Sequence record: OR192075.1
DNA: 64,000 nt
Origin: Escherichia phage MIZ6
Direction: 5' to 3' (one strand)
Shown here: positions 3,257 through 57,753 of the stretch, one piece after another
How the letters are laid out: each line of letters opens with the position of its first letter
How positions within the stretch are numbered: the first letter of the stretch is position 1
Translations under genes and position numbers: made by a program
The notes under the pieces: generated by a model
Databases searched by the model: none
What the model was told of the DNA's origin: nothing
The model's input: the letters and a program-made list of their open reading frames with translations, nothing else

Positions 3257-3565
3257 TTATAAAGTTTGACCGTTGTTTTTCGCGTAATGCTGAATGCGTG
3301 CTTGATCTGCTTCCGCTGGTGATAGATTCCATGCGATCACTACAACTTCTGACGCATCATGATCATTATCACTTACCCAATGATTATGATTCATACAATT
3401 GTTTGCTATCGCGTGAGAAAATGATCTCATTACCGGAGACGTATAATCATAGTAACGGATTTTCAGATTTTCATCAACGTACAAGTAGATCGTATACGGC
3501 TTATATTCAGTAACCAGTAACAGACAGTTACGCAATTCTGGGAAAATCTTTTTAGTTAATTTCAT
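3257..3565 (-). CDS. HxHW-family small protein (paralog 3, divergent)
   Basis: YLYVDENL, NHNHW, VVIAWN; ATG at 3565 with RBS GAGGATTATAAA. Confidence 0.5.
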   Translation of the reverse strand: MKLTKKIFPELRNCLLLVTEYKPYTIYLYVDENLKIRYYDYTSPVMRSFSHAIANNCMNHNHWVSDNDHDASEVVVIAWNLSPAEADQARIQHYAKNNGQTL

Positions 3566-9318: not shown

Positions 9319-9633
9319 TTATTTATAAATTTCGACGATCTGCGCTGGAGTCAGCCCGTCTACATTAATCAGACTATCAAGCCCAAAACTACGGAAACCT
9401 TCAACTGCAATTTCATATACTGGCAAAGATGTTTCTGATTCTTTACGCGGTTTTTCAACATTAGGAACTAACCACTTTTCGTATGTTTCGAAAGGCATCA
9501 GTGCCGGATCTCGCGTGGCGATCATCTCACGGACAGTACCATCTTTCTTAGTAAACTGCAAAGAGTGAGTACCGACCGAAAACATTTTCTTTAGTGCTTC
9601 ACGAAGTGCGATATTATCAACTTGTTCAGTCAT
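9319..9633 (-). CDS. hypothetical protein
   Basis: ORF; ATG at 9633. Confidence 0.5.
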   Translation of the reverse strand: MTEQVDNIALREALKKMFSVGTHSLQFTKKDGTVREMIATRDPALMPFETYEKWLVPNVEKPRKESETSLPVYEIAVEGFRSFGLDSLINVDGLTPAQIVEIYK

Positions 9634-45961: not shown

Positions 45962-48070
45962 TTAAAATTTAACATTCTTAACCAGTTTCATAAAGTCTTG
46001 TGCGCGTTTGTCGTTATGCAGAATACGATACCAGTTATCTACAATATCATACAGTAACGGGCTATTCTCTTTAAACTTAGCACAAACTGCTTTAATTCGT
46101 TCGTTTGCTGCCGTGAATTTTTCATCACAGATCTTTTTAGTTTCTTCGTCCATAATCCAACGAGTACGAAGGAGTAACTTGGAAACCTCTTTATTATAAT
46201 GACGACCGTACAGTCTGTCAATAAATTCTGGAACACAGCGTTCTAATTCATCGTCATGATACAACATAGTGATCACACCCAGATATTCGCCATACCCCAG
46301 ATGATTGGTCTTAACCTTCTTAGCCAGACCAGCCAGCTTACCGCGAACAAATTCTAGCGCACATTCCAATTGTTCGTCAACGAGATATTTTTGTGTCTCG
46401 TTTCGAGTAATAATATACTTTGTTACCCCGAAGTAGTCAAGCGCCGTGTGTAATGTATTTTCATTATAGATCGATTGACGGCTACGGCTTTCGAATGCAT
46501 CACCTACGCGGAACATGTGCAAGCCTGATAACTCGCGAATCTCTGCCGCTTTCATGTGATGGCTGGTTTTATGCCAACTGTCACCAATCTTTTCCATGAT
46601 ATACACGTTAGGCAGCTTGGGAGTAGCTTCACGTTGTGTACGCTCGGTCTTCTCCGGCTTAACTGCTTTAGCACGCAGATCATCGGCCTCTGATACCTTA
46701 ATCACGGTCATTTCAGATTCATCATAATACTGTTTGATGTACTCGAAAGTCTCCATATGTTTTTCGTTGCGCTGACGGAACACCAGTACCTTTTTATTAA
46801 TGCCGTATTCCTGGACCATGCCGTTAAGAGTCAGTGCACGCAGTTTCGGTTTATCGGTATCATCAATAAGACACGTAATATCTTCTTTATGCATCCATAC
46901 AAAATGCGTAATATTGTATTGACTGCTAACGAAAGCAGGTCGCAATTTGCTGATTGTGTGTCGATGATGATACAGAGTATACACCTGACCTTCTACGTCA
47001 TTAGGCGAATCTTTACCCGCATTCACAAACTTATTATAGATTGCTACCGGATCATCCCACTGTCCGATCTTACCCATCTTGCTAATAATATTGCGTTGCG
47101 TCGATGAATACTCGCTCATAAATTGCGCAAGTTTACGCTCTGTTTTAATGTTGGCGATCTTCTCTTTAACCTTTTCCAACATCATTTCATTGATTTCTGC
47201 AATGCGTTTTTCGATGTTCGCTTTAGTCTCAATTGACAAGTGAACTTCTTCACGCGATGGCATCAGGTCCAAATCACCCAACTCAAAATTAATGTAAATG
47301 GTCTGGTGCTGGCGGTTTACAGCTTCTAACCATGTTCCGCGAACATATTCATACGGGATCGGATACTGGATCTTACCCATGATTGCATATACTACATAGG
47401 AATCGTTATCACGCCCATTACAAACATAATAATTATCAAAGCTAGGGAAATAATTAATTTCGATTGCATTGATATTAGGTTTGTGTTCACCAAAATGACG
47501 CAGTACAAACTGTGCTTCTCGATGCCATGTCTGAATGTCTTTTTCTTTCACCGGAATAGTGATTTTCAGACCATTGTCTTCATAGGTCGGTTCGTCGAAA
47601 ATCTGCACCATTTTCGGCATAGAGTTTTGCACAAATGCCGTAAAGCCATAAGCGCGACCATTGTAGTAGTTTACGATTGTAAAGGTGTCGGTGTAGCTAT
47701 AAGCAGATTTCGCACCCAAACCAAAAGATCCGATATAATCATTAGTTTGGTCTTTTGTTGATTCAAAGTAAACCGTAAACAGTTGTTCTAATTCTTTCTT
47801 AGACGGAATACCAGTACCATAATCACGCACAGAAAAATACGGTTCGATTGCAGTTGGTAAATGAATATCAAACGGACGATCTAAGGTTCCGGCTTCTTTG
47901 TGAGTGTCGGTAGCATTGCACGAATACTCACGGACACAAGCACGTTCACAATATTGATAAGTGTTCTTAGAAAGCACCATAAAAGCCTTGCTACTTGCTT
48001 TCAGTGAAAAATCAACCGCACCGCTCAAGTCACTGCCAAATACTTCTTCATTATCAATATGCATTTTCAT
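45962..48070 (-). CDS. rIIA: rIIA protein
   Basis: colinear with T4 rIIA N-terminal ATPase-like region (DYGTG, NDYIGSFGLGAKSAYSYTDTFTI). Confidence 0.9.
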   Translation of the reverse strand: MKMHIDNEEVFGSDLSGAVDFSLKASSKAFMVLSKNTYQYCERACVREYSCNATDTHKEAGTLDRPFDIHLPTAIEPYFSVRDYGTGIPSKKELEQLFTVYFESTKDQTNDYIGSFGLGAKSAYSYTDTFTIVNYYNGRAYGFTAFVQNSMPKMVQIFDEPTYEDNGLKITIPVKEKDIQTWHREAQFVLRHFGEHKPNINAIEINYFPSFDNYYVCNGRDNDSYVVYAIMGKIQYPIPYEYVRGTWLEAVNRQHQTIYINFELGDLDLMPSREEVHLSIETKANIEKRIAEINEMMLEKVKEKIANIKTERKLAQFMSEYSSTQRNIISKMGKIGQWDDPVAIYNKFVNAGKDSPNDVEGQVYTLYHHRHTISKLRPAFVSSQYNITHFVWMHKEDITCLIDDTDKPKLRALTLNGMVQEYGINKKVLVFRQRNEKHMETFEYIKQYYDESEMTVIKVSEADDLRAKAVKPEKTERTQREATPKLPNVYIMEKIGDSWHKTSHHMKAAEIRELSGLHMFRVGDAFESRSRQSIYNENTLHTALDYFGVTKYIITRNETQKYLVDEQLECALEFVRGKLAGLAKKVKTNHLGYGEYLGVITMLYHDDELERCVPEFIDRLYGRHYNKEVSKLLLRTRWIMDEETKKICDEKFTAANERIKAVCAKFKENSPLLYDIVDNWYRILHNDKRAQDFMKLVKNVKF

Positions 48071-53095: not shown

Positions 53096-54487
53096 TCAAA
53101 TATAGTCTACTCGATACCGCGCACGGGTAACACCCACATATAATAACTGCATTGCCAATTCAAAGTCAACATTGTCTGTACACATGCAAGGAGTATACAG
53201 GAACACGCGGTCTACGCTGATCCCTTGTGACTTATGAATGGTGCAAGCTGGTAATGCTTTTACATTCAAGAACATACGCTTCATCGTCCAGAATGAATCC
53301 CAATCTGGTTTAAATTTTGGATTCTCTTTCTTCATTTCGCGATATTGTCCGGCGACCGTATTCAGATAGATAGAGAAAATGTTCTTCTGACGTTGTTCTG
53401 TCAGAATGTTGATTTCTACTAAATCTGGTTTATCTGTAGTGATTCCGACTGCATCTAAACCTACTTTCTGATTTAGGATTTCTTTGTCTTCGTCATCATC
53501 GACGCTTTCCACTTTCAGAGTATATCCTAAAACTGGTTGCGGATCTACCCCCGTGCAACGTAATGTAAATTCACGCGGGATGACCTCTTTAACTCGGATC
53601 ATCTCACCATTGTTAAAAATAACATTGGGAATCTTCTTCCCGCGTTCATCTCGCAGATATTCGATCAATGGTTCCTGAGTAACCAGAATTTCATCTACAA
53701 TCACTGGTTCATCGGTGTTATAAACGCGCTTACGTACAATTTCATTGAGTTTTTCGACGCTCTTGTTAGTGTAGGCCAGAATACGGTTTTCTAGAAGGTC
53801 TTCCGGCGTTTTAACGGTTTCGAAATAATGTTTCATAAACTCCGGCAGAGTTGAGCTATGGAATACACCCTCGTTACCGCACTGTTTTTCGAATACCCAT
53901 TTACCGTTACGGACAGCGGTCGCCACATCAATGATCGGTGCATTAGATCGTTTAATTTCTGTCAACTCCACGTTTTGAAAATTTTCATCCGTGAAGAAAG
54001 GAGAAATTGACGTTGCACCGCTCGGATCAACTGGTCGTAACTGGTGCGGATCGCCAACTGCAATAACAACAATTCGACCGTTGATACTCTTCATGAGAAT
54101 ATCAAATAGTTTCTTATCGACCATACTCGCTTCATCAACAATGATGATCTGAACATCATCTAGTTTAGGAGTATCTTTTTGTTCAAATACTTGAGTATCT
54201 TCATAGTTGGTCGGGTTAAGACGCAATAAAGCATGTAAAGTAAATGCTTGACGACCTACCGCCTTACTCAAAACTTTTTTAGCCTGATGGGTAGGCGTTG
54301 CCAAAACCACACCAGTTACACCACGGCGGACCATTTCCTGAACAATGAATTTCATCATTGCGGTTTTACCAGTACCCGCCGCACCACGGACAGTTGTATG
54401 CTTCTTTTGTTCAATGCGTTTCATTAGAACATCAAAAGCATGTTTTTGTCCGTCTGTTAACATATCGAAAGTTAATACTCTGCTCAT
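53096..54487 (-). CDS. dda: DNA helicase Dda (SF1)
   Basis: colinear with T4 Dda (GAAGTGKT Walker A, NAPIIDVATAVRNGKW, YVGVTRAR). Confidence 0.92.
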   Translation of the reverse strand: MSRVLTFDMLTDGQKHAFDVLMKRIEQKKHTTVRGAAGTGKTAMMKFIVQEMVRRGVTGVVLATPTHQAKKVLSKAVGRQAFTLHALLRLNPTNYEDTQVFEQKDTPKLDDVQIIIVDEASMVDKKLFDILMKSINGRIVVIAVGDPHQLRPVDPSGATSISPFFTDENFQNVELTEIKRSNAPIIDVATAVRNGKWVFEKQCGNEGVFHSSTLPEFMKHYFETVKTPEDLLENRILAYTNKSVEKLNEIVRKRVYNTDEPVIVDEILVTQEPLIEYLRDERGKKIPNVIFNNGEMIRVKEVIPREFTLRCTGVDPQPVLGYTLKVESVDDDEDKEILNQKVGLDAVGITTDKPDLVEINILTEQRQKNIFSIYLNTVAGQYREMKKENPKFKPDWDSFWTMKRMFLNVKALPACTIHKSQGISVDRVFLYTPCMCTDNVDFELAMQLLYVGVTRARYRVDYI

Positions 54488-54801
54488 TATCCTAAAATCC
54501 TCACCTTGCGAACACAGATAGTATTGAGTTCTCGCCGTACCCGTTCTTTTTCATATTCAGGAATTTTATATTCGATACCATCCCGAACAATTTCAGAAGA
54601 CCGGATTATACCAAATTTTCTTTTAGGCACAACCTTGTATTTCGGTTCACCTGCCAATAGACTCTCACAATAATCTATCTGATCACACATTGACGCTAAC
54701 GCAGCATCATGTGTTTCGCAAGTTAGGACGCGACCCTTCGCGTCCACTGAGTATTGAAAGAATCCGTCTTTATCACGATAACATACAGCAAATACATGCA
54801 T
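54487..54801 (-). CDS. hypothetical protein
   Basis: ORF coupled to dda. Confidence 0.5.
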   Translation of the reverse strand: MHVFAVCYRDKDGFFQYSVDAKGRVLTCETHDAALASMCDQIDYCESLLAGEPKYKVVPKRKFGIIRSSEIVRDGIEYKIPEYEKERVRRELNTICVRKVRILG

Positions 54802-55556
54802 TATAAACCTACCTTAGCTTTCATCAATTCAATCCACGACGCATCAATCGGAAGCCCGTATTTCACGCGTTCTTTTTGTGCTGGCGTTAAGTTCTCATAC
54901 TTAGAAAGAGATTCAATCAAAACGCTGGTATATTTTAGCACGATTTCGGCATTGTTTGCAATAGCCTTAAGTTTTTCTTCTTTCTTGTTGATTTCGCTAA
55001 GTGCTTGCTTGAGATCTGCAATTTTCTGATAACGTTCTTCCATACGGAAGAGAGTATTTTTAATCGCTCGCTCTGCTGCCTCTGCTTTCTCCGGTTCGTT
55101 GTGCTTTTTGTGGCGCTCGATTGCTAATTTCTTTTCTTCAATTGCCATTTCCTGATTTTTGATGCGATTCTCGTTAAGTTCGATCCACTCGATGTACTTC
55201 GCACGTAGGGCAATTTCATCATCAGAAAGTTTACCGTTAGTTCCTAGTTCCTGGATCTCTTTAAGAGATTCGATAGTGTGATTGCCACGGAAAGAATTAT
55301 ATTTCAGTTTAACCGGAATTACATTGCCATCAACATATCCCAGATTGCAATCAATGCGCTCTAAGGAGAGTCCGTCATCACCTTCACCGAAAGCCTCACC
55401 TGAATAGGCGCAATGAGTCTGACGGTAAATGTTACGCACTGTGACTAAGCTCATAGAGAAGTCTTTGTTGCGACGTGAAGCGCCAGCCATGATAGAGTTC
55501 AGACGGAAAACAACCAGTGCCAATTCTTCGTTAGATTTAAAAGCAAACAGTTTCAT
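54801..55556 (-). CDS. hypothetical protein: degenerate HNH_3-like N-terminal motif plus C-terminal coiled coil
   Basis: HCAYSGE...LSLERID...GYVDGNV pattern; Lys/Glu-rich heptad-like tail. Confidence 0.35.
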   Translation of the reverse strand: MKLFAFKSNEELALVVFRLNSIMAGASRRNKDFSMSLVTVRNIYRQTHCAYSGEAFGEGDDGLSLERIDCNLGYVDGNVIPVKLKYNSFRGNHTIESLKEIQELGTNGKLSDDEIALRAKYIEWIELNENRIKNQEMAIEEKKLAIERHKKHNEPEKAEAAERAIKNTLFRMEERYQKIADLKQALSEINKKEEKLKAIANNAEIVLKYTSVLIESLSKYENLTPAQKERVKYGLPIDASWIELMKAKVGL

Positions 55557-55618
55557 AATTGATTCTCCTTAGTTGGTATGTGTGTATTATTGTCTATCTT
55601 GGTTTGTGATGTCAACAC

Positions 55619-56122
55619 TTAAATTAAAGAAAATTTGTAAATCTCTATCAGATCGCCGTTACACGCGTAAACTTCCTCGATCTCATCAAGGATCATGGTC
55701 GTTCCTGTCTTGTATATGCACTCGCGCTCGTCTGCCAACATAGCATACAAAGACAGTCGAGTAGTCGGATTGTCATACTCTTTAGACACCACTCGGTCAA
55801 TAGCATGTTCGTAATAATTCATGCAAGGCTTGGTTGGTTTTATCGCAATAATCTTTCCTGTTGCATAAACATCGGTTGCAAAGTCCTCTGCTGTTGATTG
55901 CAGCGGTGTAAAGCTCATAGGACGCTCTACAACGAAAGAATCACCTACAATTAAGGTATCCAACTTACGGCCTTCTCTTTTGCTCACACCGCGATACAAG
56001 GCTTCATGATGCACTAACCGTTCAGTCTTTTCGATCAATCCATTAAGGATCGACATATCGATATTTTCTTTAGAGTTCATCACTTCATCAATGATGTTAA
56101 GTTCTTCTGGTGTAAATTGCAT
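55619..56122 (-). CDS. putative ADP-ribosyltransferase (Alt/ModA/ModB-like)
   Basis: R (LYRG) ... S-x-T (MSFTPLQST) ... E-x-E (DERE) order and spacing; position near 56 and dda as T4 modA/modB. Confidence 0.45.
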   Translation of the reverse strand: MQFTPEELNIIDEVMNSKENIDMSILNGLIEKTERLVHHEALYRGVSKREGRKLDTLIVGDSFVVERPMSFTPLQSTAEDFATDVYATGKIIAIKPTKPCMNYYEHAIDRVVSKEYDNPTTRLSLYAMLADERECIYKTGTTMILDEIEEVYACNGDLIEIYKFSLI

Positions 56123-56123
56123 A

Positions 56124-56155
56124 ATAAAAAAGCCTCCAATCTTTCGACGGGAGGC
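56124..56155 (-). terminator. rho-independent terminator after gene 56; its 3' stem contains the GGAGG RBS of the next gene
   Basis: hairpin GCCTCCCGTCGAAAGATTGGAGGC followed by TTTTTTATT then ATG at 56122. Confidence 0.55.
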
Positions 56156-56191
56156 ATAATAAAACCATTATAGAGTAGTGTCAACTAATTT

Positions 56192-56710
56192 TTAGTAGCC
56201 GCGTTCTTGACGGGCGAAGTTTTCAGCATTTTTCAGATAGTACAGCTTGAAGATATCCTTAGCGGTTAAACCTAAGCCCAGCATTTTAATCAGCACAAAA
56301 TGCCAGATATCGATCAATTCCATCGCAATTTCGGTTTTATCGTCATCTGACAGATCAGCAAATTTACGCGCTCGTGCTTCGCCGTGGTTCTTCTTCCACA
56401 CTTTAGTAATTGCGCTTGCATCTTTGCCATTTGACATGCCACCCAGGGCAACATAAAGTTCTCGTGTCTCGTCGTCGATTGCGTCATCCCACAACTTCAT
56501 CCAGTCAAGGATCTCCCCGCAAGTTTCCAGCTTATCAGGATGCGGCACCCACTCAAATTTATCAGCTAGTGCGACCTGTAAGCCTTTTTGCATATCTAAC
56601 ATTACTTGCAGCGGGTCTTTGCCGCTAGTGATTGCCTCGGAATACGCAATACCAGCTTTAGACATAGTTTCGTCGCTAACCAGACCAGCACAAGAATTAA
56701 ATTCTGACAT
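56192..56710 (-). CDS. 56: dCTPase/dUTPase (T4 gp56-like)
   Basis: colinear with T4 gp56 (KDPLQVMLDMQ, HPDKLET, ELIDIWHFVL, FKLYYLKN.ENFARQ.RGY). Confidence 0.92.
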   Translation of the reverse strand: MSEFNSCAGLVSDETMSKAGIAYSEAITSGKDPLQVMLDMQKGLQVALADKFEWVPHPDKLETCGEILDWMKLWDDAIDDETRELYVALGGMSNGKDASAITKVWKKNHGEARARKFADLSDDDKTEIAMELIDIWHFVLIKMLGLGLTAKDIFKLYYLKNAENFARQERGY

Positions 56711-56724
56711 ATTCACCTCATTAA

Positions 56725-57753
56725 TTAAAATTTACAATATTTCATAAACCGCATTTTAGCCATCAGACCTTGTACGGTGTTCTCTTTGATATATTCCATG
56801 ATCTGGTCGCGTGTAGCGCCCTCGTCCTGAATCATGGCGTTAACGTCTTTAGAATGCCACGGGCAACGGTCCCACAATACAATCTTTTCCCCTGCATTGA
56901 TAAACTTTTCCAGTCGGTGCATTGTATCGGCAGACCGTGGTTCCGCATCAAGTACAAACACTCGCTGGTCTGGGAAAGGTATTTCATCTAATCCCAAAGT
57001 ACCGCCAGTAATTGCACACCCGTTATCAATAAACAATGAATCGATCGGACCTTCTAAGAAATACACTGGTTTACTCGGATCGGCGCGTTCAAGACCATAG
57101 ACCTTACTCGCTAACTCATGAGTTTTAATCGTCATATATTTGGTCTTTCCGTAATCCTTTCTCAATGCTCGCCCCTGAATGGATTCTATCTTGTTCTCGC
57201 GGTTAAAGATAGGAATCACTAAACGCGGTTCAGGTTGTGGATTCTTGAAAGTATCAGCCTTAATGTGATTTGCTACCTTTTGCCATTCTCTCGTGAAATA
57301 CAGAAGATCCCATTTATCGTGGGGAATGCAACGATCACTGACATACTTTATTATAGGATGATTAGCCGGGAGAGTATCTAACCTCTCACAGAAAGGCAAT
57401 GTTTGCACTTTCTTAATCTCCGGCTTTTCTACCTTTTTCAGTGGCTTGAACGTGGTGTTCTTGTGGTCGCCTTGTTCCTTCCGTCGTTCAATAAGCCATT
57501 CCCTGAATAGGTCCGGCTTATATTGTTTGAGAAATTCACCTAACGGCTGATTGTAGTTACAGTTGAAACAACCGCATCGCAAACTATCCTTATAGGTATA
57601 GATACGGAATCGCGCTTGAGTATGATTTTTCTTTGAGTCACCGCAGATCGGACAACTACAGACCAGCGTAAATGAGCTAGTATGCAACCGTTTAAAATTT
57701 CGTTCGCCGTATATGGCTTTTTCCGCTATTTCATAATCTGCGTAGTAAATCAT
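56725..57753 (-). CDS. 61: DNA primase (T4 gp61-like)
   Basis: 342 aa as T4 gp61; N-terminal CxxC...CxxC zinc ribbon; TOPRIM-like acidic motifs. Confidence 0.88.
   Translation of the reverse strand: MIYYADYEIAEKAIYGERNFKRLHTSSFTLVCSCPICGDSKKNHTQARFRIYTYKDSLRCGCFNCNYNQPLGEFLKQYKPDLFREWLIERRKEQGDHKNTTFKPLKKVEKPEIKKVQTLPFCERLDTLPANHPIIKYVSDRCIPHDKWDLLYFTREWQKVANHIKADTFKNPQPEPRLVIPIFNRENKIESIQGRALRKDYGKTKYMTIKTHELASKVYGLERADPSKPVYFLEGPIDSLFIDNGCAITGGTLGLDEIPFPDQRVFVLDAEPRSADTMHRLEKFINAGEKIVLWDRCPWHSKDVNAMIQDEGATRDQIMEYIKENTVQGLMAKMRFMKYCKF

Follow-up and report, generated by a model that had tools for sequence, protein, structure and literature searches.

A ModA/ModB-type ADP-ribosyltransferase gene of Escherichia phage MIZ6 and a promoter-terminator-RBS leader predicted to sort its transcripts by origin

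The mod locus and the layout of its leader

The stretch of DNA analysed here, hereafter the window, consists of 64,000 nucleotides of Escherichia phage MIZ6 (record OR192075.1), an RB49-like Krischvirus that, in a comparison of 1,001 bases, is 100% identical to MIZ2 and MIZ3. It carries a single Mod-like gene, mod, which is read from the minus strand and separated from the preceding gene 56 by a leader in which a promoter, a hairpin and a ribosome-binding site (RBS) are packed against one another. The features concerned, in the direction of transcription and with the codons of the catalytic residues at the end, are as follows.

56192-56716, minus strand: gene 56 (dCTPase / NTP pyrophosphohydrolase), with its stop codon at 56192-56194; its transcripts are predicted to be terminated by the hairpin
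56185-56194, minus strand: A/T-rich UP-like tract TAAAAATTAG, overlapping the gene 56 stop codon and fitting the description of promoter-early stem-loop (PeSL) cassettes in PMC2839356
56179-56184, minus strand: -35 hexamer TTGACA, found by promoter scan, with a 17-nt spacer to the -10
56156-56161, minus strand: -10 hexamer TATTAT, found by promoter scan, recorded as minus_10_signal in GEC-3S and kept in JSE and in metagenomic relatives
56148-56149, minus strand: predicted transcription start, the seventh or eighth base past the -10 and 3' of the 5' arm of the hairpin
56132-56155, minus strand: hairpin, predicted to act as a terminator and to mask the Shine-Dalgarno sequence (SD); 5' arm GCCUCC at 56155-56150, inner GUC/GAU stem with GAAA loop at 56149-56138, 3' arm GGAGGC at 56137-56132
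56133-56137, minus strand: SD GGAGG, inside the 3' arm of the hairpin and 10 nt ahead of the AUG
56123-56131, minus strand: terminator U-run that doubles as the spacer between SD and AUG, TTTTTTATT / UUUUUUAUU, kept in relatives; the ATG begins at 56122
55619-56122, minus strand: mod, an ORF of 167 aa with an ATG start, encoding an arginine-type mono-ADP-ribosyltransferase of the ModA/ModB family, labelled 'modB' in RB49
55991-55993, minus strand: codon of R44 in the motif L-Y-R44-G, the equivalent by alignment of R73 in T4 ModB and R72 in T4 ModA, on model strand 42-45
55913-55915, minus strand: codon of S70 in the motif S70-F-T72 (the 'STS' position), an invariant column, on model strand 69-72
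55721-55729, minus strand: codons of E132-R133-E134, the ExE motif, aligned with EQE of both T4 ModA and T4 ModB

The leader thus reads TTGACA-17-TATTAT, GCCUCC-c-GUC-GAAA-GAU-u-GGAGGC, U6AUU and AUG. Its sigma-70-type promoter (56184-56156) matches the consensus at 11 of 12 positions, and the -10 ends exactly where the hairpin starts. The promoter is also annotated in GEC-3S, and the RB49 early-promoter model Pe:9496, an independent prediction, spans 9446-9496, which corresponds to 56148-56198 of the window given a coordinate offset of 46702 between the two. The original prediction for this locus made no mention of the TTGACA-17-TATTAT promoter. A TATAAT within the spacer (56172-56167) was considered as an alternative -10 and rejected, as it lies 6 nt from the -35, has no TG extension and is conserved neither in JSE nor in the relative L007. 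A transcription start lying at least 6 nt further upstream would place the whole hairpin on the mRNA of mod itself.

The hairpin stem has ten positions, one of them a C-U mismatch; its six outer pairs comprise five G-C pairs and one U-A pair, and UUUUUU follows. It folds with -15.0 kcal/mol (z = -4.0), a stability reached by none of 200 shuffled sequences, and the G/C-rich stem with a directly adjoining U-run downstream of gene 56 has the makeup of a Rho-independent terminator. In RB49 the same element was predicted by TransTerm in 2006 as the terminator 'modB<--56' (9430-9453, 10 bp, confidence 100). A simple terminator scan of the window did not list it, because the internal mismatch turns the 'loop' into one of 12 nt under the loop-size rule of that scan, and Rfam returned no match at E <= 1 for 55500-56300. 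The placement of GGAGG in the 3' arm of a terminator hairpin after gene 56, as proposed originally, is borne out at 56137-56133, and gene 56 is indeed the upstream gene; the record of Ec_Makalu_001 likewise annotates an RBS that overlaps the terminator. Of the 69 ORFs in the window whose start is preceded by an SD, only 2 carry that SD within the 3' arm of a hairpin with a folding energy of -8 kcal/mol or lower, the hairpin of mod being the stronger of the two.

An ADP-ribosyltransferase of the ModA/ModB family

Is the 167-aa product an ADP-ribosyltransferase (ART), as the original prediction had it? This assignment is fully supported. The PHROG 832 profile ('RNA polymerase ADP-ribosylase') matches residues 2-153 of the product with E = 1e-20, and the Pfam family PF26816 (Mod_ADP_RT) is recorded on relatives that share 38-74% identity with it, as well as, in the form of a precomputed accession only, on a 99%-identical protein (P0001). 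A local Pfam-A scan of the product gave only a sub-threshold DUF5507, with PF26816 absent from the output; a single-sequence search of the PDB found no match, and a profile search returned only sub-threshold matches, to Vis and XopAI, which fall exactly over the YRG, STS and ExE segments. By sequence profile, with T4 ModB-like sequences included, no strong match to a Mod-family structure was obtained in the PDB copy searched. Three relatives only were retrieved by a word-indexed protein search, and an exhaustive HMM search reached more distant ones.

The predicted R ... S-x-T ... E-x-E arrangement is present as R44, S70-F-T72 and E132-R-E134. Among 25 aligned family members, T4 ModA and ModB included, the only invariant columns are M1, K18, R44, G45, S70, E132 and E134, and because R44, G45, S70, E132 and E134 belong to this small set the motif matches are not attributable to chance. 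E132-R-E134 occupies a helix-to-strand junction directly ahead of model strand 135-137, so that the product combines a family profile match and an ART fold with the arginine of Y/F-R-G on beta-1, S-x-S/T on beta-2 and E-x-E ahead of beta-5 (ARTT loop). The double substitution R73A,G74A inactivates T4 ModB (PMC10468400). E147-I-E149 was entertained as an alternative ExE motif and discarded, since it does not align with the EQE of the T4 enzymes and E147 is not conserved.

The ART fold on which the original prediction had been staked was found by profile and by structure prediction alike. The AlphaFold model of the product (pLDDT 95.1, pTM 0.88) has 103 Foldseek matches in the PDB at E <= 1e-3, the best with E = 6e-7, and the best 50 of these 103 are all R-S-E ARTs (Certhrax, CDTa, iota Ia, VIP2, C3, ExoT, HopU1); in BFVD it matches models of phage modB and modA products with TM-scores of 0.84-0.93. 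With these C3-like and binary-toxin enzymes, and with ExoS, it shares the fold and the arrangement of the catalytic triad at 10-15% identity and a TM-score of about 0.5-0.6, but it is devoid of their translocation and binding domains, and whereas the toxins are secreted, it is an intracellular early protein of a phage.

Closer to home, the mod product resembles T4 ModA and ModB in its R-S-ExE residues, its predicted fold and the early promoter directly upstream of its gene, and the neighbourhood (dda, dda.1, srd, mod ... 56, 61) is common to both. Sequence identity amounts to 33% with T4 ModB (113 aa aligned) and 23% with T4 ModA (159 aa aligned), and at 167 aa the product is shorter than the T4 enzymes (207 and 200 aa), without some 30 N-terminal residues and an insert of about 12 residues ahead of ExE. 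T4 carries a modB-modA tandem, whereas Krischviruses carry a single copy, at one place in each Krischvirus record listed. In T4, ModA targets R265 of the RNA polymerase alpha subunit, and ModB targets S1, EF-Tu and trigger factor and also performs RNAylation. On its sequence, the single Krischvirus copy would be compatible with either paralogue, as the sequence does not discriminate between ModA and ModB. As an early protein, Mod most likely modifies host proteins of transcription and/or translation with NAD. The identity of the gene is not new: the RB49 gene is annotated "ModB ADP-ribosylase", and the label ModB or ADP-ribosylase is found on its counterpart in dozens of GenBank entries for Krischviruses.

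Transcript origin, conservation of the leader and its PeSL character

What might be the significance of burying an RBS in the terminator of the preceding gene? It had been suggested that translation of mod depends on RNA structure, and this holds insofar as the RBS lies inside the terminator stem; the mRNA of mod itself, on the other hand, is predicted to be open at the RBS, because its predicted start at 56148/56149 falls past the 5' arm. The calculated cost of opening the SD is 9.6-11.1 kcal/mol in read-through RNA versus 2.6-3.3 kcal/mol in RNA that begins at 56148/56149. The hairpin is predicted to discriminate transcripts by their origin rather than to serve as a switch within a single leader, and silencing probably affects read-through RNA only. 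Polymerases that come in from gene 56 would transcribe the complete hairpin and U-run and would mostly terminate just ahead of the mod AUG; the residual read-through RNA would have its GGAGG locked in the -15 kcal/mol stem and be translated poorly; and initiation by the sigma-70-type early promoter at about 56148/56149, past the 5' arm, would yield an mRNA that is neither terminated nor masked at its RBS. If so, these three predicted steps would tie Mod synthesis to its own immediate-early promoter and insulate it from upstream transcription. To the account as a whole, that is, an active mono-ADP-ribosyltransferase that is specific for arginine, belongs with T4 ModA and ModB and is expressed from a PeSL-type promoter-terminator-RBS leader, we assign a probability of roughly 0.7.

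The leader is 94.7-100% identical in 58 of 58 matching phage records, all of them RB49-like coliphages. Beyond these, the succession of -35, -10, C-rich arm, G-rich arm, U-run and ATG is preserved in metagenomic relatives whose proteins are 74, 63, 49 and 40% identical, with 32-34 nt between the -10 and the ATG in all four. In the comparison of leaders 94% of the cells in stem columns are paired, and the central pair of the SD occurs as U-A, C-G and A-U, compensatory changes of the hairpin being seen in relatives of as little as 40% protein identity; this covariation rests on five distinct sequences, with 9 of 500 shuffles reaching the observed score. The cassette stays with mod in spite of a different upstream gene, which is a homing endonuclease gene in JSE, where BLAST homology resumes at the -35 past the inserted gene, a Mom-like gene in the relative L009 and a methyltransferase gene in the relative L010.

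These features bear a close resemblance to the PeSL cassettes described in RB49 and phi1 (Arbiol et al. 2010, PMC2839356; Comeau et al. 2014, PMC4122927), which combine a sigma-70-consensus promoter, an A/T-rich upstream tract and a G/C-rich stem-loop followed by SD and ATG in the intergenic regions of phages of the same genus. At mod, the sigma-70-type -35 and -10 are accompanied by the A/T-rich tract, a stable stem-loop is found in the intergenic space bounded by the gene 56 stop codon (56192-56194) and the ATG of mod (56122), and the layout fits the subclass with a stem-loop downstream of the -10 that is distinguished in PMC2839356. The motif also recurs, since dozens of minus-strand TTGACA...TATAAT sites with adjoining stem-loops are found in the window (e.g. 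191, 435, 4752, 5878, 6272, 14134 and 40103), and the mod cassette, like PeSL cassettes, appears mobile. Where it departs from the PeSL description is that the 3' arm of the mod stem is itself the SD and is then followed by a U6 run. Of the 51 PeSLs listed for RB49 in PMC2839356, promoter and terminator activity was demonstrated only for PeSL 206/205 and 211/210, and the main text of that paper mentions neither RBS masking nor modB.

Masked leaders of other phage genes and competing explanations

Sequestration of an SD in long transcripts initiated upstream is known from the T4 genes e, soc, 49 and I-TevI (work of McPheeters/Gold, Mosig and Edgell; PMC3014915), where a promoter that lies within the 5' strand of the hairpin or adjoins it gives rise to a shorter, translated mRNA without the inhibitory arm (PMC3014915). 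The mod leader is an early-promoter variant of this T4-type RBS masking: its SD is paired, and its predicted start lies past the 5' arm. The bypass promoters of e, soc, 49 and I-TevI are late (gp55, TATAAATA) and delay expression, whereas the mod leader contains no late promoter TATAAATA, its promoter being of the early sigma-70 type. The bypass promoters of mod and of T4 modB are both of this early type, and the effect would therefore be to confine expression to the earliest transcripts. A further difference from the masked T4 genes is that the RB49-type hairpin is an intrinsic terminator as well.

T4 modB and six other Tevenvirinae mod genes follow the same logic with unrelated sequence. Hairpins of -16 to -26 kcal/mol (z = -4.2 to -8.4) precede T4 modB and the first mod gene of JS98, S16, myPSH1140, X20, PEi26 and pzk-kv8; in all seven the 5' arm is the -10 plus discriminator of an early promoter, the 3' arm comprises SD and AUG, and no U-run follows. 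Double changes affect 6 of the 16 pairs of the Tevenvirinae hairpin, and the 3' end of a primer sequence available for T4 coincides with the predicted start of T4 modB, which is consistent with that prediction but is not proof of it. The masking partner differs between the groups, being the -10 plus discriminator in Tevenvirinae and the segment just past the -10 in RB49-like phages, where the hairpin is fused to a terminator. We would give even odds to the broader proposal that mod genes of Straboviridae share a 'self-insulating' leader, in which the RBS is masked by pairing with the transcribed form of the early promoter of the gene itself and only transcripts from that promoter are translated.

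Does the overlap of SD and hairpin need a regulatory explanation at all? The hairpin could be a plain intrinsic terminator or insulator of a PeSL cassette, with GGAGG overlapping it out of compactness and masking having no selected role. TransTerm does score it as a terminator, PeSL stem-loops are abundant in the window, and their position relative to promoters varies, as also stated in PMC2839356. Moreover, L010 (38% protein identity) keeps hairpin and U-run and yet has a separate SD further downstream, and L009 keeps the stem while its SD has degenerated to GGUGG; these two leaders suggest that selection acts first of all on the terminator stem, and that masking of the SD may have come about as a side effect of compaction. 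Set against this are the seven Tevenvirinae leaders, where, despite the lack of a U-run, SD and AUG are still paired in a strong stem with the -10 region of the gene's own promoter, so that masking and not termination is what is conserved there, and the finding that the SD overlaps a hairpin at only 2 of 69 ORF starts in the window. On balance we consider the plain-terminator explanation unlikely, though it deserves more weight than either of the two that follow.

The original prediction implied that mod's own mRNA carries the hairpin and is translated upon regulated melting, be it by temperature, a phage factor or ribosome standby. The SD does sit in a stem, and were the promoter inactive, all mod mRNA would be read-through from gene 56. 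This is nevertheless very improbable: a near-consensus promoter, predicted independently and annotated by others, adjoins the stem and is conserved even where spacer and upstream gene differ, hairpin and U6 would terminate most such RNA ahead of the AUG, and neither an Rfam family nor a riboswitch-like element matches the region 55500-56300. Just as improbable, in our estimate, is that the inverted repeat is mainly a DNA-level recombination site for PeSL-mediated shuffling of mod cassettes, an idea that draws on the variable upstream neighbour (gene 56, homing endonuclease, Mom-like gene or methyltransferase), on the resumption of JSE homology at the -35 and on the PeSL-mediated exchange and mini-circles reported for RB49 and phi1 in PMC2839356. 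Strand-specific features favour a role at the RNA level, as the U-run is found on the coding strand only, the G-rich arm is the SD and G-U pairs are tolerated; recombination at the repeat would in any case be compatible with, rather than exclusive of, the preferred reading of a leader that sorts transcripts by origin.

In the literature examined, no description of self-insulating mod leaders was found, and a 2010 review of masked T4 genes names only e, soc, 49, I-TevI, mobE and segB (PMC3014915). The gene itself adds nothing new, and its leader makes a modest, incremental regulatory point in a case that is otherwise ordinary and largely known. What the leader would illustrate is how one 24-nt hairpin can do three jobs, namely terminate upstream transcription, mask the RBS in read-through RNA and be bypassed by an embedded promoter. 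The recurrence of such an arrangement before T4 modB and its relatives suggests that phages have a specific need to make these toxic enzymes, which reprogramme the host, from none but the first transcripts of an infection, and a self-insulating leader, if real, would restrict the toxic enzyme to a short immediate-early pulse. It may be speculated that the enzyme, if it modifies RNA polymerase alpha like ModA, could shut off its own UP-element-dependent promoter, and, equally speculatively, that the pulse could be cut shorter still by RegB cleaving the exposed GGAG. This bears on studies of ModB-driven ADP-ribosylation and RNAylation, among them the timing and dose of the enzyme and the design of phage mutants, and the leader might be of use to synthetic biology as a portable insulator part.

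The mod locus and its product

The source of the window is a T4-type coliphage, an RB49-like member of the genus Krischvirus. Over the 1,001 bases surrounding mod it matches Escherichia phages MIZ2 and MIZ3 at 100% identity and RB49 at 98%. The genes of the region all lie on the minus strand, in the order of the T4 dda-srd-mod ... 56-61 neighbourhood.

Genes of the mod region
53096-54487 (-), dda helicase
54487-54801 (-), dda.1/Y01A
54801-55556 (-), srd
55619-56122 (-), mod
56192-56716 (-), gene 56 dCTPase
56725-57753 (-), gene 61 primase

The mechanical call starts gene 56 at GTG 56716 (174 aa; region 56710-56716, minus strand); in the RB49 annotation the gene opens two codons further on, at an ATG that corresponds to window 56710 (172 aa). 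Because srd has its own promoter (TTGACA-18-AATAAT, 55586-55615, minus strand, beginning 4 nt past the mod stop codon) and is missing at this place in the more distant relatives of mod (L008-L010), where dda.1/Y01A directly follows mod, it looks like a separately inserted cassette.

The mod ORF encodes 167 aa, with no in-frame alternative start upstream of its ATG; it is annotated as "ModB ADP-ribosylase" in RB49 (AY343333) and labelled ADP-ribosylase in most other Krischvirus records. The original prediction of an ADP-ribosyltransferase (ART), made from an R / S-x-T / E-x-E arrangement, is correct, the motifs being LY-R44-G, S70-F-T72 and E132-R-E134, and the gene, already annotated as such, offers nothing new in itself. 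The protein matches PHROGs family 832 ("RNA polymerase ADP-ribosylase", E = 1e-20), and a 99%-identical entry in a large protein database carries a precomputed match to Pfam PF26816, named Mod_ADP_RT for relatives at 38-74% identity. R44 aligns with R73 of T4 ModB and R72 of its paralogue ModA, S70 with the serine of DSFTT/VSASY in the same two proteins, and E132xE134 with the EQE of both; in T4 ModB, the R73A,G74A mutation abolishes ADP-ribosylation and RNAylation (PMC10468400). The only invariant columns of a 25-member alignment, assembled by exhaustive HMM search, are M1, K18, R44, G45, S70, E132 and E134. In the AlphaFold2 model computed from this alignment (pLDDT 95.1, pTM 0.88), strand 42-45 carries R44, strand 69-72 carries S70, and the ExE immediately precedes strand 135-137. 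Foldseek returned 103 PDB matches at E <= 1e-3, and the best 50 of these are all R-S-E ARTs, among them Certhrax, CDTa, iota Ia, VIP2, C3, ExoT and HopU1; the top matches among viral models are phage modB and modA proteins (TM 0.84-0.93). Profile search and structure prediction, whose failure to show an ART fold would have overturned the original prediction, both bear it out.

Compared with T4 ModA and ModB, the product is trimmed: its N terminus is shorter by about 30 residues, and an insert that in them precedes the ExE is missing. Identity is 33% over 113 aa to ModB and 23% over 159 aa to ModA. The ModA type is associated with RNA polymerase alpha and the ModB type with S1, EF-Tu, trigger factor and RNAylation, and the sequence does not decide between ModA-like and ModB-like behaviour. 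No other Mod-like ORF occurs in the window, and tblastn found one matching place per Krischvirus record among the records listed.

A promoter/terminator cassette ahead of mod

An A/T-rich tract separates the gene 56 stop codon, located by direct reading, from a promoter that abuts the hairpin.

Elements of the mod leader
56194-56192 (-), gene 56 stop TAA
56184-56179 (-), -35 TTGACA, followed by a 17-nt spacer
56161-56156 (-), -10 TATTAT
56155-56132 (-), hairpin GCCTCC / C / GTC-GAAA-GAT / T / GGAGGC
56131-56123 (-), TTTTTTATT (U-run)
56122 (-), mod ATG

As had been proposed, GGAGG forms the 3' arm of the terminator hairpin after gene 56, with the U-run next to it; the fold (-15.0 kcal/mol, z = -4.0) was equalled by 0 of 200 shuffles. 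A Shine-Dalgarno (SD) sequence within the 3' arm of a hairpin at least as strong as -8 kcal/mol precedes only two of the 69 SD-preceded ORF starts in the window, mod being the strongest. The second, an AGGA in a -8.6 kcal/mol hairpin, belongs to a 702-aa ORF that starts at 48070 (minus strand).

The promoter scan scored TTGACA-17-TATTAT at 11/12 consensus matches, ending at 56156, the base preceding the hairpin; the GEC-3S record annotates identical -35 and -10 elements, and that of Ec_Makalu_001 a terminator and an RBS overlapping each other. In RB49, Nolan et al. (2006) described early promoter Pe:9496 (9446-9496) and the TransTerm terminator "modB<--56" (9430-9453; 10-bp stem, confidence 100), which correspond, at a verified offset of 46702, to 56148-56198 and 56132-56155, respectively.

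The leader is a promoter/terminator cassette of the PeSL (promoter-early stem-loop) type, a name given by Arbiol et al. (2010) to the combination of a sigma-70 promoter, preceded by an A/T-rich tract, with a G/C-rich stem-loop ahead of SD and ATG. These authors put the number of copies in RB49 at about 51, showed promoter and terminator activity for other copies, and recognised a subclass whose stem-loop lies past the -10 (PMC2839356). Such cassettes are dense in the window and fall into several subclasses.

PeSL-type cassettes in the window, by position of the -35 hexamer
191, 435, 4752, 5878, 6272 (-), GGGGATC...GATCCCC between -35 and -10
4520, 14134, 14641, 40103 (-), stem overlapping the -10
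62505, 51819, 5336 (-), stem downstream of the -10

Among the PeSL-type cassettes of the window, the mod copy alone carries its SD inside the stem.

Two predicted transcripts

From the position of the -10 (56161-56156), transcription is predicted to start at 56149 or 56148, downstream of the 5' arm, which is six bases long. Window 56148 is also the end of the RB49 promoter model, and CCC-G at the predicted start agrees with Nolan et al., who report that C is favoured from -3 to -1. RNA from the promoter itself would lack the hairpin, so that it would neither terminate nor mask its SD, whereas gene 56-derived RNA would either end in the U-run just ahead of the AUG or run on with the RBS closed. 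The computed cost of opening GGAGG is 9.6-11.1 kcal/mol in read-through RNA and 2.6-3.3 kcal/mol in RNA from 56148/56149. Where transcription starts, how efficiently it terminates and how differently the two transcripts are translated are inferred. The structure-dependent translation of the original prediction is therefore upheld as to the SD in the stem, but it makes sense only with the TTGACA-17-TATTAT promoter, which had been overlooked and whose own RNA is predicted to lack the 5' arm.

The leader belongs to a known class, in which RBS-masking leaders are bypassed by an internal promoter. The same logic is established for T4 e, soc, 49 and I-TevI, where, by contrast, the bypass promoter is late rather than early (PMC3014915); the early-promoter twist appears to be conserved for mod genes. 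What purpose could it serve? Both ModA and ModB are made early (PMC9697503) and are toxic to E. coli (PMC2988021; PMC3014915). Were only promoter-proximal, immediate-early RNA translated, the enzyme would be made in a brief pulse of limited dose, whatever the upstream content, which would also suit a mobile cassette.

Conservation of the leader design

T4 modB (L002, the T4 mod locus, 3376-3420) is served by an early promoter of its own and lacks a U-run; its -10 and discriminator, UAUGAUAGCUUC, form a -18.2 kcal/mol hairpin (z = -5.6) by pairing with SD and AUG, GGAGGCUAUCAUG, and RNA that begins past the -10 is unstructured. In JS98, S16, myPSH1140, X20, PEi26 and Klebsiella phage pzk-kv8, the first mod gene is preceded by a leader of the same design, whose sequence co-varies.

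Tevenvirinae mod leaders beyond T4
L011, 616-662
L012, 571-617
L013, 523-569
L014, 472-518
L015, 511-557
L016, 598-644

Across T4 and these six other genera, the hairpins range from -16 to -26 kcal/mol (z = -4.2 to -8.4), double (compensatory) changes occur at 6 of 16 pairs, and the predicted start lies in the hairpin loop; JS98 modA, driven by a promoter of its own, did not display the masking design. A T4 "modA_modB" circularisation-assay primer ends exactly at the predicted modB start, which is indirect evidence, and this transcript was reported not to be NAD-capped (10.1101/2024.04.04.588121). Mod genes are absent from the masked initiation regions in the 2010 review of T4 translational control (PMC3014915); this family-wide masking pattern is the single modestly new point. 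Only modB and mrh.2, two of nine SD-preceded ORFs at the T4 locus, have their SD in the 3' arm of a strong hairpin. That of mrh.2 (-11.8 kcal/mol; L002 about 1250-1312, soc to mrh.2 intergenic) lies downstream of soc and is probably the soc terminator, a second terminator/RBS overlap.

Among RB49-like coliphages, which account for all 58 matching phage records, leader identity is 94.7-100% (58/58). In phage JSE (L003 524-1444), a homing-endonuclease gene inserted on the opposite strand separates gene 56 from mod; BLAST homology with the window picks up again at the mod -35, and -35, -10 and hairpin are all intact, with a different spacer. The inserted gene overlaps the end of gene 56.

In metagenomic relatives whose proteins are 74, 63, 49 and 40% identical, the elements follow one another in the same order and 32-34 nt lie between -10 and ATG; the hairpins of L007-L009, folded one by one, reach -13.6 to -18.2 kcal/mol (z = -3.4 to -4.4). 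Stem pairing is 94% across five sequences; the mid-SD pair varies as U-A, C-G or A-U, giving the SDs GGAGG, GGGGG and GGUGG, and a second stem pair also shows a double change, covariation that, with five sequences only, is supportive rather than conclusive. The A-U variant weakens the SD and keeps the stem, and L010 (38% identical) keeps hairpin and U-run with a separate SD downstream; what is primarily constrained therefore seems to be the stem, in its role of terminator and insulator. Upstream of mod, L009 carries a Mom-like gene (72-746), and in L010 (1-1432) Mom-like, Tad2-like (weak match) and N6/N4 DNA methyltransferase genes replace gene 56, which points to a variable anti-defence/DNA-modification neighbourhood in distant relatives.
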